Below are positions 4,619 through 19,393 of a DNA stretch of 26,285 nucleotides, piece after piece. Both the position numbers and the translations under genes were made by a program. The stretch covers positions 1 through 26,285 of the forward strand of contig JAZDJS010000043.1 in the NCBI GenBank assembly GCA_043803745.1, in the 5' to 3' direction. Below the pieces are notes generated by a model. That model was not told where the DNA came from, did not search any database, and was given only the letters and a program-made list of their open reading frames with translations. Numbering within the stretch: position 1 is the first letter of the stretch; every line of letters begins with the position of its first letter. Source of the DNA: an archaeon (lineage in GTDB: Archaea; SpSt-1190; DYHY01).

Positions 4619-4692
4619 GGGTCCGTAGCTCAGACTGGGAGAGCGGCAGACTGAAGATCTGTAGGTCATGGGTTCAAATCCCATCGGACCCA
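4619..4692 (+). tRNA. tRNA-Phe (GAA)
   Basis: Acceptor GGGTCCG/CGGACCC, discriminator A, D-arm GCTC/GAGC, anticodon arm GCAGA-CTGAAGA-TCTGT, T-arm ATGGG-TTCAAAT-CCCAT. No intron, CCA not encoded. Confidence 0.97.
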
Positions 4693-4925
4693 CTCGTCCA
4701 GCTGAGGCTGGACTCGTGTTTCCTCAGACTTCGGCTGATGCCTCAGCCATCGGACTCACCAGCGCCGACCGGAAAATTTCAAACTCGGCGCTGTTGACTT
4801 CTCCGGTGCCAAGTAGAACGCAACTTTTCTTATTGGCACGGACCCTCTGAGGAGGGGCTACGCACTGCGTGCTGCTCAGCCACTCGCGGCGCCCCTGCAA
4901 TTTATCTGCGCTGCTCAGCCACCTT
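4693..4925 (+). ncRNA. Putative structured RNA in the tRNA-Phe 3' trailer
   Basis: Serial hairpins: GTCCAGC-TGAG-GCTGGAC, GGCTGA-TGCC-TCAGCC, CAGCGCCGA...TCGGCGCTG, TCCGGTGCCAA...TTGGCACGGA, CCCTC-TGAG-GAGGG. The last two are shared with the tRNA-Asn trailer. Expression not demonstrated. Confidence 0.5.
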
Positions 4926-4952
4926 ACAATCCAATTTTCAAATCCAAGGATG

Positions 4953-5483
4953 CTAGCCCTGTTCGCAAGGCGTGCTATAGAGAACTTCGGCAAGCAGATA
5001 TGCTGCTTCCTTGGACGGCGCGGCTCCCACGAATTCAAGGGAGCGCGTAGCGTCATCTTGGTCGGCGCAAAACCTATATTTTGCAATCGGGGGCACCAGG
5101 AACTTCAGGCCAACGGCACGGAGGCCCTTCACAACAGAGCTTCCTCTGCCGCCGTAGATTGCACACGCCCCTTCGTCTACTGGCAAGGCATATGCGCTTT
5201 CAATTTCCCCGTTCTCAAGGGCGCCCTTGCCTGAAAGTATTTTGGCAACCAGTTCAGGGACTGGCCCGTCCTTGAACATTGGCGTTTTCACAGAAGCCGA
5301 AATCAAGCGCGGCTCGTATTTTCCATTTTTCTCCCTGAACACAACTTCGATTTCAGCTTCCCGGAATCTGAGTTCTCCGACGTTTGTGAGGTCCTGCTCT
5401 CCGATTTTCTCTAGCGACTCGCCAAACTCCCTGTAAATTTTGTCAACGGCGCGCTCAACCTCAGCGGAAATTCTAGTTACCAT
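4953..5483 (-). CDS. Hypothetical protein
   Basis: 176 aa ORF filling the gap, ATG start with TTATAAA about 22 nt upstream; no recognised motif. Confidence 0.7.
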   Translation of the reverse strand: MVTRISAEVERAVDKIYREFGESLEKIGEQDLTNVGELRFREAEIEVVFREKNGKYEPRLISASVKTPMFKDGPVPELVAKILSGKGALENGEIESAYALPVDEGACAIYGGRGSSVVKGLRAVGLKFLVPPIAKYRFCADQDDATRSLEFVGAAPSKEAAYLLAEVLYSTPCEQG

Positions 5484-12344: not shown

Positions 12345-12548
12345 AGAAGAAACGGGGGTTCTGATGACGCCTTGCAACGAAACTTTAGGAAAGTCCTCCG
12401 CAGAGGATCTCGCACGATTTCACCAAACCGCCCGTTCAGTTGCTTCAGTTGCGAACGGGCAGCGGGGGGTAGGATTAACCTTGCTCCGCAGAGCATCCGT
12501 GCCTTAGCACCGGAAAAACTGGGGGGTCGAAGACCCCACGGGTTGGAG
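12345..12548 (-). ncRNA. Putative structured RNA in the tRNA-Asn 3' trailer
   Basis: Minus-strand hairpins: GGGGTC-TTC-GACCCC, TCCGGTGC-TAAG-GCACGGA, TGCTC-TGCG-GAGCA, GCCCGTTC...GAACGGGC (extended by G-U pairs on this strand only), TCCTC-TGCG-GAGGA. Confidence 0.5.
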
Positions 12549-12620
12549 CGCCTTGAGCAGGACTCGGACCTGCGACCTAGTGGTTAACAGCCACTCGCTC
12601 TACCGCTGAGCTATCAAGGC
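12549..12620 (-). tRNA. tRNA-Asn (GTT)
   Basis: Reverse complement GCCTTGA TA GCTC AGCGGTA GAGC G AGTGG CTGTTAA CCACT AGGTC GCAGG TCCGAGT CCTGC TCAAGGC G. CCA not encoded. Confidence 0.95.
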
Positions 12621-14565: not shown

Positions 14566-16005
14566 TCAGCTCTTTTCCGGGACCTTCTTCGCTTTCGAGA
14601 AGAACTCTATCGCGTCCGCAAGTTCCTGGTGGCTCTTCGCATGTTCCTCAATTGAAATCCCCTTCTGATATGCCTCGCAAGCCTGCACCAGCGCCGCCGC
14701 TCCCGCCTTCGTCCCCTTCGGATGGGCATGGCAGCCAGCTCCCATGGTCGTTATGAAATCGACGTTCCCCATTACATCGATGAACGGCTTCAGTAGCGTC
14801 GGATTAAGCCCGCCTGAAATGATGGGGCAGCATTTTTTCATCCCCCGCCAGCTGTCGTCCGAAAGGATTACGTGATGCGCCAAGTCTTTGTTGACAATCT
14901 CGACTGCATCCTCATCGTTTTCTGGAATCATCCCCCACTCCTGCTCGAAGAAAAGCCCCTTGCCCTTGAAGTTGAGTATGCTATGAGCCGCAACAACATC
15001 CTCCTCCGGGCTCCCCATCATTTTCCCAACCCCGGCAGTCCCGGTATGTATCCCGGAAGCCCCGGCAAGCCGGGCGAACTTGGAAAGGACCAAGACGGAA
15101 AATCCGAAAACGTTCTCAGGCCTGGTGAACGCGCCATGGGCAGCCCTGTGGAAATGGATGAAAACGTCCGGATACCTCCGGCGAAGGGTCTGGACAGCCA
15201 TCCAGCCCGCGGTTATCCCGTCAATCAGGAAACAGTAGCTTCCCGGCTCGAACCCGGCAGCCCGGATGAGCTCGCACCGCCTAACCATTTCATCAAAGTC
15301 GGCAGCCGAAACGTTGAAGGAATGCACTTTCTTCTTTCCCGTCTCACGCACCGCTTTGTCCATCGCCTGCTTGACATTGGGGACCATCTTGTCATATGGG
15401 CAGAAATCCTGGTCAGCCTGGGGCTCGTCGTTCTTGACGAAATCTCCGCCCCCGACCCAGAAATCGTAGCAGACTTCGGCATATTCGGCAGAGGTAAGTC
15501 CCATCTTCGGCTTGATAATCGTCCCGAGAATCGGCCTGTCGTAAATTCCCAGGTATTTCCTGAGGTCATCGAGGGTATAGCTCGGCCCGTCATATTGCTC
15601 AAGCATTGAGGGCGGGAACCAGACGTCAAGAAGCTTCAGCGCGCTTACTTCCTTCATTCCCAAAACGTTCCCGACAATATAGGTCAGGATGTTCTGGACG
15701 TTCCCCTTCCTGTCGAAGAGGCGCCAGGGATATGCTATCCAAACAAGATTTCTCTCCAAATCAATCCTGTAGACGAGCGCGTTCAGCTCCCTTGAGAACG
15801 GGGTCTCCGTCTTCACCGGGAAGTTAGTCCCTGTCGAGGATTCCGCAGCGATTTCAGCAGCAGCCTGGAGGAACGAAAGCCTCCCCCCAGGCACAAGGCG
15901 GAAGACTGAAAGCATATACTCCCCGTTCTTCGGGTCGCGCAGGGAGAGATTGACATATGCGAGCTGCTTGTCGTTGAGCGTTTTGAGCAAGTCCTCATGA
16001 GCCAT
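14566..16005 (-). CDS. rbcL: Ribulose-1,5-bisphosphate carboxylase large subunit, form II/III
   Basis: AESSTGT, GTIIKPKMG, GGDFVKNDEPQ (carbamylated Lys plus Asp/Glu), HFHRA, HTGTAGVGKM loop 6, SGG, GAG, and a 29-aa insertion before KKCCPIISGG. Confidence 0.93.
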   Translation of the reverse strand: MAHEDLLKTLNDKQLAYVNLSLRDPKNGEYMLSVFRLVPGGRLSFLQAAAEIAAESSTGTNFPVKTETPFSRELNALVYRIDLERNLVWIAYPWRLFDRKGNVQNILTYIVGNVLGMKEVSALKLLDVWFPPSMLEQYDGPSYTLDDLRKYLGIYDRPILGTIIKPKMGLTSAEYAEVCYDFWVGGGDFVKNDEPQADQDFCPYDKMVPNVKQAMDKAVRETGKKKVHSFNVSAADFDEMVRRCELIRAAGFEPGSYCFLIDGITAGWMAVQTLRRRYPDVFIHFHRAAHGAFTRPENVFGFSVLVLSKFARLAGASGIHTGTAGVGKMMGSPEEDVVAAHSILNFKGKGLFFEQEWGMIPENDEDAVEIVNKDLAHHVILSDDSWRGMKKCCPIISGGLNPTLLKPFIDVMGNVDFITTMGAGCHAHPKGTKAGAAALVQACEAYQKGISIEEHAKSHQELADAIEFFSKAKKVPEKS

Positions 16006-16775: not shown

Positions 16776-18170
16776 TTAACTTTTGCGGCTAAGAAGGTTT
16801 TCCACCGTTTTCCTGACGAACTCCGGATTCGGGCTTCCCGAGGATTTGTATGCCCGGAGTATCTTCAAGGGATTCTGGAATTCCTCAATCTCCGCCTCGG
16901 TCAAGCCAGCGCCCCCGGCCTTTCTGAAGGCGGAATAGGTTATCCTGTCCTTTCCTTCCTTCTCCGAAATCTTAACCGCAAGCTCGACAGTTTCCTTCGC
17001 TTCCCGGAACGGGTTCCCCGTCTTTATCGCGAAAAGCTCGAGGAAATGCGTCGCAGTTATGAAGTGCGCCCCCGACTGCTCAAGCATCCGTTTCCTGTCC
17101 GGAACAAGACCGGAAACAAGCTCGGGGAGAAGGGAAAGCAGCTCTGAGAAATCCGAGACGAGGGGAAGTATCTCCCCCTTTGTGAGCTGGGTCTCCCTGT
17201 TATATCCGATGAAAGAAGAGCTCCCGAGCGAGAGGATTGAAAAAAGCCTGCCTTTCGCAACCGAGGCATGTCCCTTCACGAGCTCAAGGAAATCCGGGTT
17301 CTTCTTCTGCGGCATTATCGAGCTTCCGGTGCAGTATCCGTCGGGCAGCTTGATGAAGCCAAACTCCGGAGAGGAGAGGAGAATGATTGTTTCGGCAAAG
17401 GAGGAAAGGTGATTAAGGCTTACTGAAATCGCGAAAGCTAGTGCAGCTTCAGCTTCCCACCTGTTCTGTATGGGGTCGAGGGAATTCTCTTCAGGACCTG
17501 AAAAGCCAAGCTCCTTTGCAGTAAGCTCCCGGTCAATCGGGAAAGCAGTACCGTAGCTTGCGGCAGAGCCGAGGGGACTCTTGTCATAGAGAGCGAGCCA
17601 CTTCTCGAGCTGTTTTGCGTCCCGCTCGAGAGCAAGACAGACTGAGAGGCAATAGTGCCCGAAAGTCGTCAACATTGCCCGCCTGTGATGCGTGTAGCCG
17701 GGCATTACGGTTTCTGCCTCTTTCAGGGCGAGTTTCGCAAGCGCGACAATAACCCGGGAAAGCTTTTTCCCCAGTTCCTTCGCAACCCCCTTCAGGAAAA
17801 TCCGTGTGTCAAGGGCAACCTGGTCGTTCCTGCTCCGTCCGGTGTGGATTTTCTTTCCGGCGGGAGCGAGCTTGGTGAGCGCGCATTCAACGGCAGTATG
17901 GACATCTTCAATCTCGGAAGAGAGCTCAACGCCCGCATCCGCGATTTTCAGCAGGCCCGTCTTGATTTCGGAAAGCTCCCTTTTTGTCAGCAAGCCGACC
18001 TTCCGAAGCATTTTCGCATGGGCCAGGGAACCGGAGACATCCGCTTCGAAAAGCATCTTGTCCAGGGGAAGCGAGCACTTCACATCCCTTCCGGAGAGGA
18101 AGGAGAGCAGCGCGCCGTCCGGCGCGGGCAGGTCCGTCCCCCAGAGCCGTTTTCCACTCTGCCCACTCAT
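16776..18170 (-). CDS. argH: Argininosuccinate lyase
   Basis: HTGRSRNDQ, MPGYTH, GSSIMPQKKNP fumarase-superfamily signature; ATGA overlap with argG. Confidence 0.95.
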   Translation of the reverse strand: MSGQSGKRLWGTDLPAPDGALLSFLSGRDVKCSLPLDKMLFEADVSGSLAHAKMLRKVGLLTKRELSEIKTGLLKIADAGVELSSEIEDVHTAVECALTKLAPAGKKIHTGRSRNDQVALDTRIFLKGVAKELGKKLSRVIVALAKLALKEAETVMPGYTHHRRAMLTTFGHYCLSVCLALERDAKQLEKWLALYDKSPLGSAASYGTAFPIDRELTAKELGFSGPEENSLDPIQNRWEAEAALAFAISVSLNHLSSFAETIILLSSPEFGFIKLPDGYCTGSSIMPQKKNPDFLELVKGHASVAKGRLFSILSLGSSSFIGYNRETQLTKGEILPLVSDFSELLSLLPELVSGLVPDRKRMLEQSGAHFITATHFLELFAIKTGNPFREAKETVELAVKISEKEGKDRITYSAFRKAGGAGLTEAEIEEFQNPLKILRAYKSSGSPNPEFVRKTVENLLSRKS

Positions 18171-19393
18171 TTCTTAGTCTTGCTCCCGATGGCATTGGCC
18201 ATCCTTGTCGAAAGCCCCCAGAGCTCGATGAAGCCGACCGAGTTCATCTGGTCGAACTTGCTGTCAATGTTGTAGCTTGCGAGGTTGAAATCGTAGATTC
18301 CGTAGGGCGACTTTCTGCCGACAACCCGGACCGAGCCCTTCTCAAGCTTGACCTTCACAGTTCCTGTGACAGTTTCATTCACTTTTTCAACAAAAGAATT
18401 CAAGGCGCCCATCAGGGGGTCGGTCCAGAGCCCGGAATAGGCAAGCCAGGCCCATTTGGAATCGACCTGCTCCTTGAAGTGGTTCGTGCCTGAGGTGTTC
18501 GTGAATTTCTCCAAATCTTTGTGGGCGGAGATTATTATCGCGGCAGCGGGGTATTCGTAGACTTCCCTGCTTTTTAGGCCAACGACCCGGTCCTCCATGT
18601 GGTCTAGCCTCCCTATTCCATAGGAACCGCCAAGCTTGTTGAGCGCGCAGATAAGCTCAAGCGTTCCGGAGACGAGCTTCCCGCTTGACTGGATTTTCGC
18701 CGAAACCGGAACGCCCTTCTCGAACTTTAGTTCGACTATCTCCGGCTTGTCAGGTGCCTTTGAGGGAGCGACAGTCCACTCGAAAGCCCTTTCAGGAGGC
18801 TCGTTCCAGGGATCCTCAAGAACCCCGCATTCGGCGGAGCGCCCCCAGAGGTTCTGGTCGATTGAGAACTCGCTTTTCTTTTCGCTTACAGGCAGCCCGT
18901 TCTTCCTGCAATACTCGATTTCCCCGTCCCGTCCCATGTTCCATTCCCTGACGGGCACGAGCACCTGCATCTCCGGAGCAAGGGATTTCACGATTATGTC
19001 GAATCTCACCTGGTCGTTCCCCTTCCCGGTGCAGCCGTGCGCAATCGCGCTTGCGCCCTCTTTCCGTGCGATGCCGACCGCAAGCTTCGCCATCAGGGGC
19101 CTCGCAATCGAGGTCCCGACAGGATAGATTCCCTGATAGAGCGCGTTAGCCTTTATTGCCGGAATAACGTAGCCCTCGACGAACTCTTTTTTCGCGTCAA
19201 TCGTGTAATGCTTGACTGCCCCGATTTTCTTAGACTTGTCCGCAACCTCGTTCAGATTCTCCTTCTGCCCGACGTCGAGCGTCAGGGTTATTATTTTCCA
19301 TCCGTGTTCCTTTTCGAGCCATTTGCAGATCGTCGTTGTGTCGAGCCCGCCCGAGAAAAGCAAGACCGCCTTCTTGCCCGCTCCCTTCTTCAT
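18167..19393 (-). CDS. argG: Argininosuccinate synthase
   Basis: FSGGLDT, HGCTGKGNDQVRF, SIDQNLWGRS, EDRVVGLKSREVYE. Confidence 0.97.
   Translation of the reverse strand: MKKGAGKKAVLLFSGGLDTTTICKWLEKEHGWKIITLTLDVGQKENLNEVADKSKKIGAVKHYTIDAKKEFVEGYVIPAIKANALYQGIYPVGTSIARPLMAKLAVGIARKEGASAIAHGCTGKGNDQVRFDIIVKSLAPEMQVLVPVREWNMGRDGEIEYCRKNGLPVSEKKSEFSIDQNLWGRSAECGVLEDPWNEPPERAFEWTVAPSKAPDKPEIVELKFEKGVPVSAKIQSSGKLVSGTLELICALNKLGGSYGIGRLDHMEDRVVGLKSREVYEYPAAAIIISAHKDLEKFTNTSGTNHFKEQVDSKWAWLAYSGLWTDPLMGALNSFVEKVNETVTGTVKVKLEKGSVRVVGRKSPYGIYDFNLASYNIDSKFDQMNSVGFIELWGLSTRMANAIGSKTKK

Follow-up and report, generated by a model that had tools for sequence, protein, structure and literature searches.

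A two-hairpin module in archaeal tRNA-trailer cassettes that resembles a miniature insertion element

The tRNA-Phe and tRNA-Asn loci of the window

The window, that is, the whole stretch of 26,285 nucleotides that was analysed, is contig C43 of the source genome G000, an assembly of 1.23 Mb in 51 contigs with 54% G+C and 90% completeness. Two relatives recur below, G001 from the same genus and G003 from the same family. The window carries archaeal genes (CDC48, topoisomerase VI subunit B, digeranylgeranylglycerophospholipid reductase and a type III-like RuBisCO) and two tRNA genes located by both ARAGORN and Rfam, tRNA-Phe at 4619-4693 (+) and tRNA-Asn at 12620-12548 (-). The tRNA-Phe gene is flanked by the CDC48 gene and a HerA-like ATPase gene. 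The features of the two loci are as follows.

4619..4693, plus strand: tRNA-Phe(GAA) gene, no encoded CCA (ARAGORN; Rfam tRNA, 71.1 bits)
4694..4759, plus strand: first trailer cassette, a 54-nt hairpin-rich insert, then a tail copy of the tRNA (4748-4759), then CA
4761..4801, plus strand: 5' part of the Phe-type host cassette, an 8-bp hairpin, the linker GTTGAC and TTC; architecture common to paralogs
4802..4842, plus strand: hairpin 1 of module copy 1, TCC, bulged G, GTGC...GCAC, GGA, with a 26-nt apical extension
4843..4856, plus strand: hairpin 2 of module copy 1, CCCTC-TGAG-GAGGG
4857..4883, plus strand: 3' part of the Phe-type host cassette, a small hairpin plus GCTCAGCC-AC; module-free in three paralogs
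12548..12620, minus strand: tRNA-Asn(GTT) gene (ARAGORN, Rfam)
12515..12547, minus strand: 5' portion of the Asn-type host, made up of TCCAACCC, the GC hairpin at 12537-12523, CCAG and a T run
12482..12514, minus strand: module copy 2, 33 nt, hairpin 1 at 12514-12496 and hairpin 2 at 12495-12482
12464..12481, minus strand: 3' portion of the Asn-type host, AGGTTAATCCT followed by a C-rich run
12394..12407, minus strand: hairpin resembling hairpin 2 but standing alone, TCCTC-TGCG-GAGGA, 141 nt past tRNA-Asn

The first-pass annotation had reported one RNA motif in both trailers, each time in tRNA sense, and the letters bear this out. Copy 1 reads TCCGGTGC (4802-4809), 26 nt, GCACGGA (to 4842) and CCCTC-TGAG-GAGGG (4843-4856) on the plus strand and begins 108 nt after the end of tRNA-Phe, and copy 2 reads TCCGGTGC-TAAG-GCACGGA-TGCTC-TGCG-GAGCA at 12514-12482 on the minus strand and begins 33 nt after the end of tRNA-Asn. 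The hairpin-1 pattern had 2 matches in the window and none in 100 shuffles (0/100). Also as described before, each copy is preceded by another hairpin (4761-4792 and 12537-12523, respectively) and a T/C-rich linker. In the Phe-type host the 8-bp hairpin is formed by 4761-4768 with 4785-4792, and TTC at 4799-4801 abuts the module; in the Asn-type host the final T of the T run (12518-12514) is the first base of copy 2. The Asn copy and a copy on contig C6 both start inside a T5 run, which at the Asn copy is a place where archaeal transcription would be expected to stop.

The tail copy at 4748-4759 repeats the last 12 nt of tRNA-Phe with 1 mismatch. At the syntenic locus of G001, tRNA-Phe has an encoded CCA and lacks the first trailer cassette with its insert, and 4694-4761 of the window has the look of DNA inserted between C74 and C75 together with a duplication of 12-14 nt. 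Within 4694-4761 the distal tail copy reads ...CCA, while the tRNA-Phe gene itself is without CCA.

Structure and covariation of the module

The core of the module is 33 nt, in which hairpin 1 abuts hairpin 2 in fixed order. Hairpin 1 consists of TCC, an optional 1-nt bulge, 4 bp, a free cap and GGA, and hairpin 2 of NNCTC, a 4-nt loop and GAGNN. An alignment of ten copies (A1; 8 from G000 and 2 from G003) had 97.5% paired cells, and changes on both sides of a pair were restricted to the two outer pairs of hairpin 2 (UA/CG, CG/GC), whereas hairpin 1 was invariant across the ten. The covariation that had been claimed for the motif therefore holds for those two pairs but not for hairpin 1 in A1; it is real but thin, because it is based on two pairs and about three haplotypes. 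Weaker members of the family do show compensatory variants of hairpin 1 (GTGC/GCAC, GTGT/ACAC, GGCT/AGCC). A stem identical down to its bulged G had also been described, and both window copies do share TCCGGTGC/GCACGGA, but across the family the bulge is G, A or T, or is missing.

The spacing between the hairpin-1 arms ranges from 4 to about 38 nt, which is unsuited to a double-stranded operator and thus points to a folded single strand as the substrate; an operator for a dimeric protein was considered and, with such variable spacing, found unlikely. The apical extensions of hairpin 1 measure 26-27 nt in 3 copies (window 4810-4835, C36:32504-32530 and C15 around 62960) and share no sequence with each other, and the remaining copies have 4-nt loops, so that there are two size classes with nothing between. 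On the sense strand the hairpin-2 loops of all ten A1 copies read T-[G/A]-[A/C]-G, which we take to be the stable YNMG/UNCG class of RNA loops. The wobble cells of A1 were about 4 G.U versus 2 A.C, a ratio that does not clearly favour the sense strand.

Size and range of the family

A covariance model, R1, was built from hand-picked copies, and its matches to its 10 source copies are by construction, because the model was built from them. In the window it matched copy 1 at 4799-4856 (46.9 bits, E 9.6e-10) and copy 2 (56.9 bits, E 1.7e-12). G000 as a whole gave 8 strong copies (E <= 3.2e-8) and about 8 weaker matches. Among the latter, C48:50239 has a compensatory inner helix (GGCT/AGCC) and a bulged T, C49:36061 has a copy of the 3' end of tRNA-Met after it, C15:84404 is located in the tRNA-Ile trailer, and C10:18030 lies directly behind an intron-containing tRNA. 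A match on C21 was discarded as false, a perfectly palindromic hairpin being its cause. By pattern, the exact hairpin 1 has its third G000 copy on C6, and the strict 3' half gave 8 matches in G000 versus 0 for the reversed control.

Across 61 genomes, G000 and 60 relatives, at E <= 0.001, R1 matched only G000, G001 (1 match) and G003 (4 matches), all of one family and making up 3 of its 4 members in the set, with 0 matches in the other 58. The G003 copies score 53-54 bits and represent a near-identical module in another genus. A search of the genome and its relatives, with a covariance model, had been proposed as the check on the motif, and its outcome was positive on both counts: besides the 8 strong G000 copies it found further ones in G001 and G003, several of them near tRNAs, and R1 recovered the family together with weaker members that compensate in hairpin 1. 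The motif had not been recognised as a described family, and the window indeed gave no Rfam match for it at gathering score.

A wider scan of metagenomes with hairpin 1 plus the first three stem bases of hairpin 2 (CTC), serving as an independent control, found 39 loci, at which hairpin 2 was fully complementary at 1 (L207), had 4/5 pairs at 1 and had 3 pairs or fewer at 37; because only one of the 39 has a fully complementary hairpin 2, hairpins 1 and 2 do not stand together by chance. The pattern scan of genome contigs gave 112 loci versus about 70 estimated by chance for 17 fixed bases, and in the first 80 of these 112, R1 found the full module only at locus L070, in a record of Candidatus Micrarchaeum sp. 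Three viral-contig loci with the 3' half pattern were rejected, as their R1 scores (19.6-20.3 bits) were like those of chance matches. Judged from these sequence searches, the module family appears confined to one family of Micrarchaeota-type archaea.

All ten tRNA-linked copies (10/10) stand in tRNA sense: behind tRNA-Phe, -Asn, -Gly, -Thr, -Ile and the C10 tRNA in G000, behind tRNA-Thr in G001, behind tRNA-Tyr and -Lys in G003, and at the tRNA-Met tail. The module lies anywhere between 33 and 180 nt from the tRNA end, and 4 of the 8 strong copies have no tRNA upstream. Every copy is intergenic, in most cases 3' of a same-strand ORF as judged from raw ORFs.

Filled and empty sites

The Asn-type host (~50 nt) also occurs in G001, at a tRNA-free locus. 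When it was aligned with the two filled G000 copies, the gap covered exactly the 33 module columns and the flanks were joined. This empty G001 host is closer to the host in the window than the filled C6 copy is, so that either the module was lost once, precisely, or it was inserted twice at that one point. The empty host (L031; G001:C9, about 1450-1800) sits inside a stretch of roughly 110 nt that has direct repeats of about 30 nt on either side and no tRNA nearby, and the bracketing habit is therefore not limited to tRNA ends.

The Phe-type host has the order hairpin, then GAC, TTC or CTC, small hairpin, GCTCRGCC. Its 3' part occurs in G000 in 5 copies, of which 3 are empty, 1 holds the module (window) and 1 holds another insert of 34 nt at the same point, ending in a hairpin-2-like CTC-TGAG-GAG; this reading of filled and empty sites is based on the raw sequences, MAFFT having placed the module ambiguously. 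The tRNA-Phe locus is syntenic between G000 and G001, with coding flanks only 72-76% identical and an 850-nt trailer region that is unalignable, and the G001 trailer holds a Phe-type host without the module. On the metagenome contig L207 the module lies in the trailer cassette of tRNA-Arg(TCT), both G000 units of which are empty, and the first hairpin of this host carries a compensatory change between G000 and L207.

Dead copies of the T-arm, made up of the tRNA T-arm plus the acceptor 3' strand, are split by the module exactly between TTC and AAATCC in two units behind tRNA-Thr(GGT) on C51 of G000 and in one behind tRNA-Thr(TGT) of G001; the tRNA-Met trailer of G000 has the T-loop-split layout too, with variant hairpins. 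We found no duplicated bases at any junction inspected, including the filled versus empty sites, and in nearly all of roughly 18 copies the module directly follows TTC or TTT. The sole R1 match of G001 is the one behind tRNA-Thr(TGT), its Phe and Asn trailers being without the module, and none of the orthologous tRNA trailers of the relatives share a module.

These comparisons showed that the module is present or absent as a precise unit, in unrelated flanks and untied to orthologous tRNAs. Of the conserved pre-tRNA-trailer module that had been postulated, the part that survives is a real, repeated, structured and tRNA-enriched element; conservation at orthologous tRNAs is not found. A conserved processing or termination signal of trailers, which had also been offered, is contradicted by the different tRNAs used in each genome, by distances of 33 to 180 nt and by the 4 of 8 strong copies that are not behind a tRNA.

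tRNA tail copies and other T-loop inserts

Tail copies (last 12 nt, <=2 mismatches) were found within 400 nt downstream of 23 of the 40 tRNA genes of G000, often as 2-3 tandem units of insert plus tail, and the repeats bracket 30-130 nt. The bases before a tail copy are nearly always CTCAG, CTCGG or CTCAA, followed by CC. At least 14 dead T-arm fragments in G000 contain some T-loop insert, and the hairpin TCCGTGC...GCACGGR recurs in the T-loop inserts of Ser-GCT, Val-CAC, Leu-TAA (GTGT/ACAC) and Met. The module is thus nested, hairpin 1 being one piece of other T-loop inserts and its cap being extended in 3 copies.

A second type of T-loop insert begins with the hairpin C[C/T]GAGCG...GCGA[A/G]G (trailers on C19, C21, C51, C15, C6 and C49); the tandem mismatch G.A/A.G at its centre is retained amid covarying pairs on either side, an RNA-like feature. 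Two ideas about the tail copies were dropped. Cassette and tail copy together do not form an acceptor-like minihelix, as only 2/30 beat shuffles at p <= 0.05 (in-register 7-mer), and a casposon-like origin of the 12-15-nt tail duplications was set aside with Cas1 not found and terminal inverted repeats not seen.

Search for a mobilising enzyme

The 90%-complete G000 assembly gave 0 matches for Cas1, for the tyrosine recombinase PF00589 (E <= 0.001; not even one of XerA type), for the serine recombinase PF00239, for the Y1 transposase PF01797, for TnpB (PF07282), and for an IS110-type transposase or a reverse transcriptase; since the assembly is incomplete, these negatives need not hold for the organism itself. 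The sole transposase-like gene is a DDE_Tnp_1 gene, a 343-aa open frame at G000:C15:86409-86936 (-) (locus L221), directly downstream of a second, compositionally odd tRNA-Leu(TAA), with which it may form a small foreign island. DDE transposases generate inverted ends and target duplications, and the module has neither of these.

Interpretation of the module

We propose that the module is a miniature two-hairpin insertion module, nested in hairpin cassettes of tRNA trailers and moved by a putative trans-acting activity, and we give this reading an even chance of being right. Such a module would lodge, always in one orientation, directly 3' of TTC or TTT, and its sites would be small hairpin-rich cassettes and dead tRNA 3' fragments behind tRNA genes. 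The presumed trans-acting activity would read the folded single strand and copy and insert the module, or remove it precisely. Copies would survive because trailer sites are not under tRNA selection, and, if the trailers are transcribed, the hairpins may secondarily serve as stable 3' structures. The uniform tRNA-sense orientation may simply be inherited from oriented host cassettes. Among the options that the first-pass annotation had listed, a mobile repeat targeting tRNAs fits best, given the precise filled and empty sites, so that its interpretation as a whole is partly supported: the module resembles a miniature insertion element that may also have a role as RNA, and does not resemble a tRNA-processing signal or a ribozyme. 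Besides these exact indels, the nesting and the recurrence of one sequence in unrelated flanks and in different genera, although genes are only about 75% identical within the genus, speak for a mobile or selfish unit.

Several points speak against an insertion module. The copy number is low (8 strong copies), the two hairpins are unlike each other, in contrast to the paired ends of known hairpin transposons, and the enzyme searches of the 90%-complete assembly gave only the one DDE transposase. Gene conversion between cassettes could also yield a precise indel, and mobility is deduced from the sites compared and not from a directly seen insertion event. Moreover, the tRNA-sense orientation and the structure-keeping compensatory changes fit an RNA function equally well.

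That the module acts as RNA, forming a structured part of pre-tRNA trailers made by read-through and of other 3' regions and having spread by cassette duplication, is in our view somewhat unlikely; it could then bind a protein, or cap the 3' end and so block exonucleases or aid termination. The sense orientation of all ten tRNA-linked copies, the intergenic positions mostly 3' of same-strand (raw) ORFs, the uniform sense-strand loops of hairpin 2, and the compensatory variants of hairpin 1 together with the one in the Arg(TCT) host hairpin (G000 versus L207) all suit it. The Phe trailer folds better than 200/200 shuffles (z = -4.58), whereas the fold of the Asn trailer is unremarkable (z = -1.75). 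Tandem G.A mismatches are more typical of RNA than of DNA palindromes, and neighbouring T-loop inserts, as read by eye, keep them between covarying pairs. However, the module is not kept at orthologous tRNAs, even paralogous cassettes differ by its presence or absence, it stands at variable distances (33 to 180 nt) from the tRNA end, the Asn and C6 copies start in a T5 run, and the wobble pairs have no clear sense bias.

It is improbable, we think, that the copies are passive debris, neither mobile nor functional, left as by-products of integration scars and of replication template-switching at tRNA gene ends. Tail copies at more than half of the tRNA genes (23/40) and trailers that are unalignable between genomes of one genus would be expected of debris, and the fragments that start at the T-stem resemble attR sites of T-loop-class integrases; such integrases, with attR-type tRNA fragments, were reportedly described by Williams in 2002. 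Debris does not explain one 33-nt sequence in unrelated flanks and in different genera, the association of hairpin 1 with hairpin 2 beyond chance, the exact junctions, or near-identity across genomes whose genes are about 75% identical.

Quite doubtful, too, is an archaeal intron-like element or its relic, namely a tRNA T-loop intron cut by the broad-specificity splicing endonuclease of Micrarchaeota, with the element now mostly in displaced 3' gene fragments and in copies moved to other sites. Several copies do split a T-loop copy precisely, and in ARMAN-2 (Candidatus Micrarchaeum acidiphilum), as described in PMC3239211, tRNA introns lie in the T-loop at 53/54 and 59/60, 56% of the tRNA genes are disrupted, and the endonuclease cuts relaxed motifs. 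The module, however, lies at position 56/57, which differs from the reported positions, and the Phe and Asn copies are outside tRNA-derived sequence. A non-exhaustive inspection by hand saw no 3-4-3 bulge-helix-bulge and no junction-spanning helix at the T-loop or Phe-type junctions, and a hand check showed that the 3' end of the insert has no possible pairing with the 4 exon bases that precede the 5' site. Removing each candidate T-loop insert in silico (5041 removals) led to 9 ARAGORN calls across the junction, 5 in ORF-like sequence and 4 that either were already known tRNAs or fused a tRNA with a fragment of itself, and none of them a new intact module-bearing tRNA.

A ribozyme domain that cleaves itself and thereby trims the pre-tRNA trailer, as the HDV-like theta ribozymes of phages do, is very improbable: for it speak the structure and the place in tRNA trailers, along with the conceptual precedent named in the first-pass annotation, and against it stand the lack of an Rfam match at gathering score in the window and of any ribozyme family, whether HDV-like, hammerhead, twister or another, at E <= 10 in 4690-4960 or 12360-12550 (matches there being chance-level and off-strand, and none a ribozyme in either trailer), a 33-nt core of two plain hairpins with no conserved unpaired core, a start 108 nt (Phe) or 33 nt (Asn) away from the tRNA 3' end, and the dispensability of the module at orthologous loci.

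Comparison with known systems

The closest known systems each fail at least one defining feature tested. REP/BIME (REPIN) elements are alike in being short imperfect extragenic palindromes that cluster at gene 3' ends, form mosaics and possibly serve as RNA 3' structures; unlike them, the module has about ten copies and not hundreds, has an archaeal host where the REP system is bacterial, consists of two unlike hairpins in fixed order with a strong tie to tRNA ends and T-loop copies, and comes from a 90%-complete assembly with 0 matches to the RAYT/Y1 transposase (PF01797). Miniatures of the IS200/IS605 type share with it a hairpin-based structure, a place 3' of a short fixed word (here TTC/TTT), the absence of target duplication and a fixed orientation. 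They have similar hairpins at both ends, spacer 'guide' bases and lengths of about 100 nt or longer, whereas the module is 33 nt with two different hairpins and no spacer, and TnpA/TnpB were not found in the assembly.

The theta or HDV-like tRNA-trailer ribozymes of phages are also structured RNAs encoded directly 3' of tRNA genes. Theta ribozymes begin immediately behind the last nucleotide of the tRNA, which their cleavage frees; the HDV-like fold is a nested double pseudoknot of P1, P1.1, P2, P3 and P4. The module differs from them in having no Rfam ribozyme match and no pseudoknotted core and in not lying next to the tRNA end.

The non-canonical tRNA introns of Micrarchaeota and Thermoproteales are likewise small structured inserts at precise tRNA positions, including the T-loop, with related sequences in different tRNAs ('intron transposition'), but every module copy found lies in a dead fragment or a non-tRNA cassette, none interrupts an intact tRNA gene, and inspection showed no bulge-helix-bulge. 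The Micrarchaeota lineage is described in PMC3239211 as having a splicing endonuclease of broad specificity. The attL/attR partial copies of tRNA genes resemble the present repeats in that both directly repeat the 3' part of a tRNA downstream of its gene, in some cases beginning at the T-stem. Known cases, as described in PMC9897764, bracket 9-23 kb with repeats of about 44 bp, whereas the brackets here hold 30-130 nt, the module lies inside a repeat copy and not between repeats, and no integrase (PF00589 or PF00239) was found in the 90%-complete G000.

The literature searches made here found no published description of the module. Tentatively, we suggest the possibility that the module and the wider T-loop inserts together are a new kind of very small mobile unit of DPANN type or, in an RNA version, new structured RNAs derived from trailers. 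As a mobile unit, the folded hairpin would be recognised by an enzyme of a new family, or by one that a host or virus supplies, and placed at the TTC of sequence resembling a T-loop; as RNAs, the cassettes would be structured products of tRNA trailers that end in a mimic of the tRNA 3' end. If mobile, the 33-nt core would be among the smallest insertion units known, with the universally conserved tRNA T-loop as its target in reduced genomes in which no matching transposase was seen; it would point to a new insertion mechanism and help to explain the fast-changing mosaic tRNA gene ends of DPANN archaea. If it works as RNA, archaeal tRNA transcripts would contain a structured element of a new kind. 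For annotation, the tRNA 3' fragments and hairpin cassettes described here should be taken neither for split tRNA genes nor for ribozymes.

Further elements near the two copies

Past the Phe module, GCTGCTCAGCCAC is directly repeated at 4871-4883 and 4910-4922, 39 nt apart, and this repeat is another small unit of the insert-plus-tail kind. Hairpins of the hairpin-2 type CTC-TGNG-GAG are also found alone (CTCTGNGGAG, 41 matches in the genome versus an estimated 10 or so expected), and many of these solitary hairpins close other trailer cassettes; the region of the one behind tRNA-Asn gave a weak R1 match at 12394-12427 (E 0.15). Elsewhere in the window, the RuBisCO homologue of the region 14566-16005 (-), 16776-19393 (-) had its best match to PRK13475 (633 bits) and also matched type III, and it is adjoined by the genes for argininosuccinate lyase and synthase.
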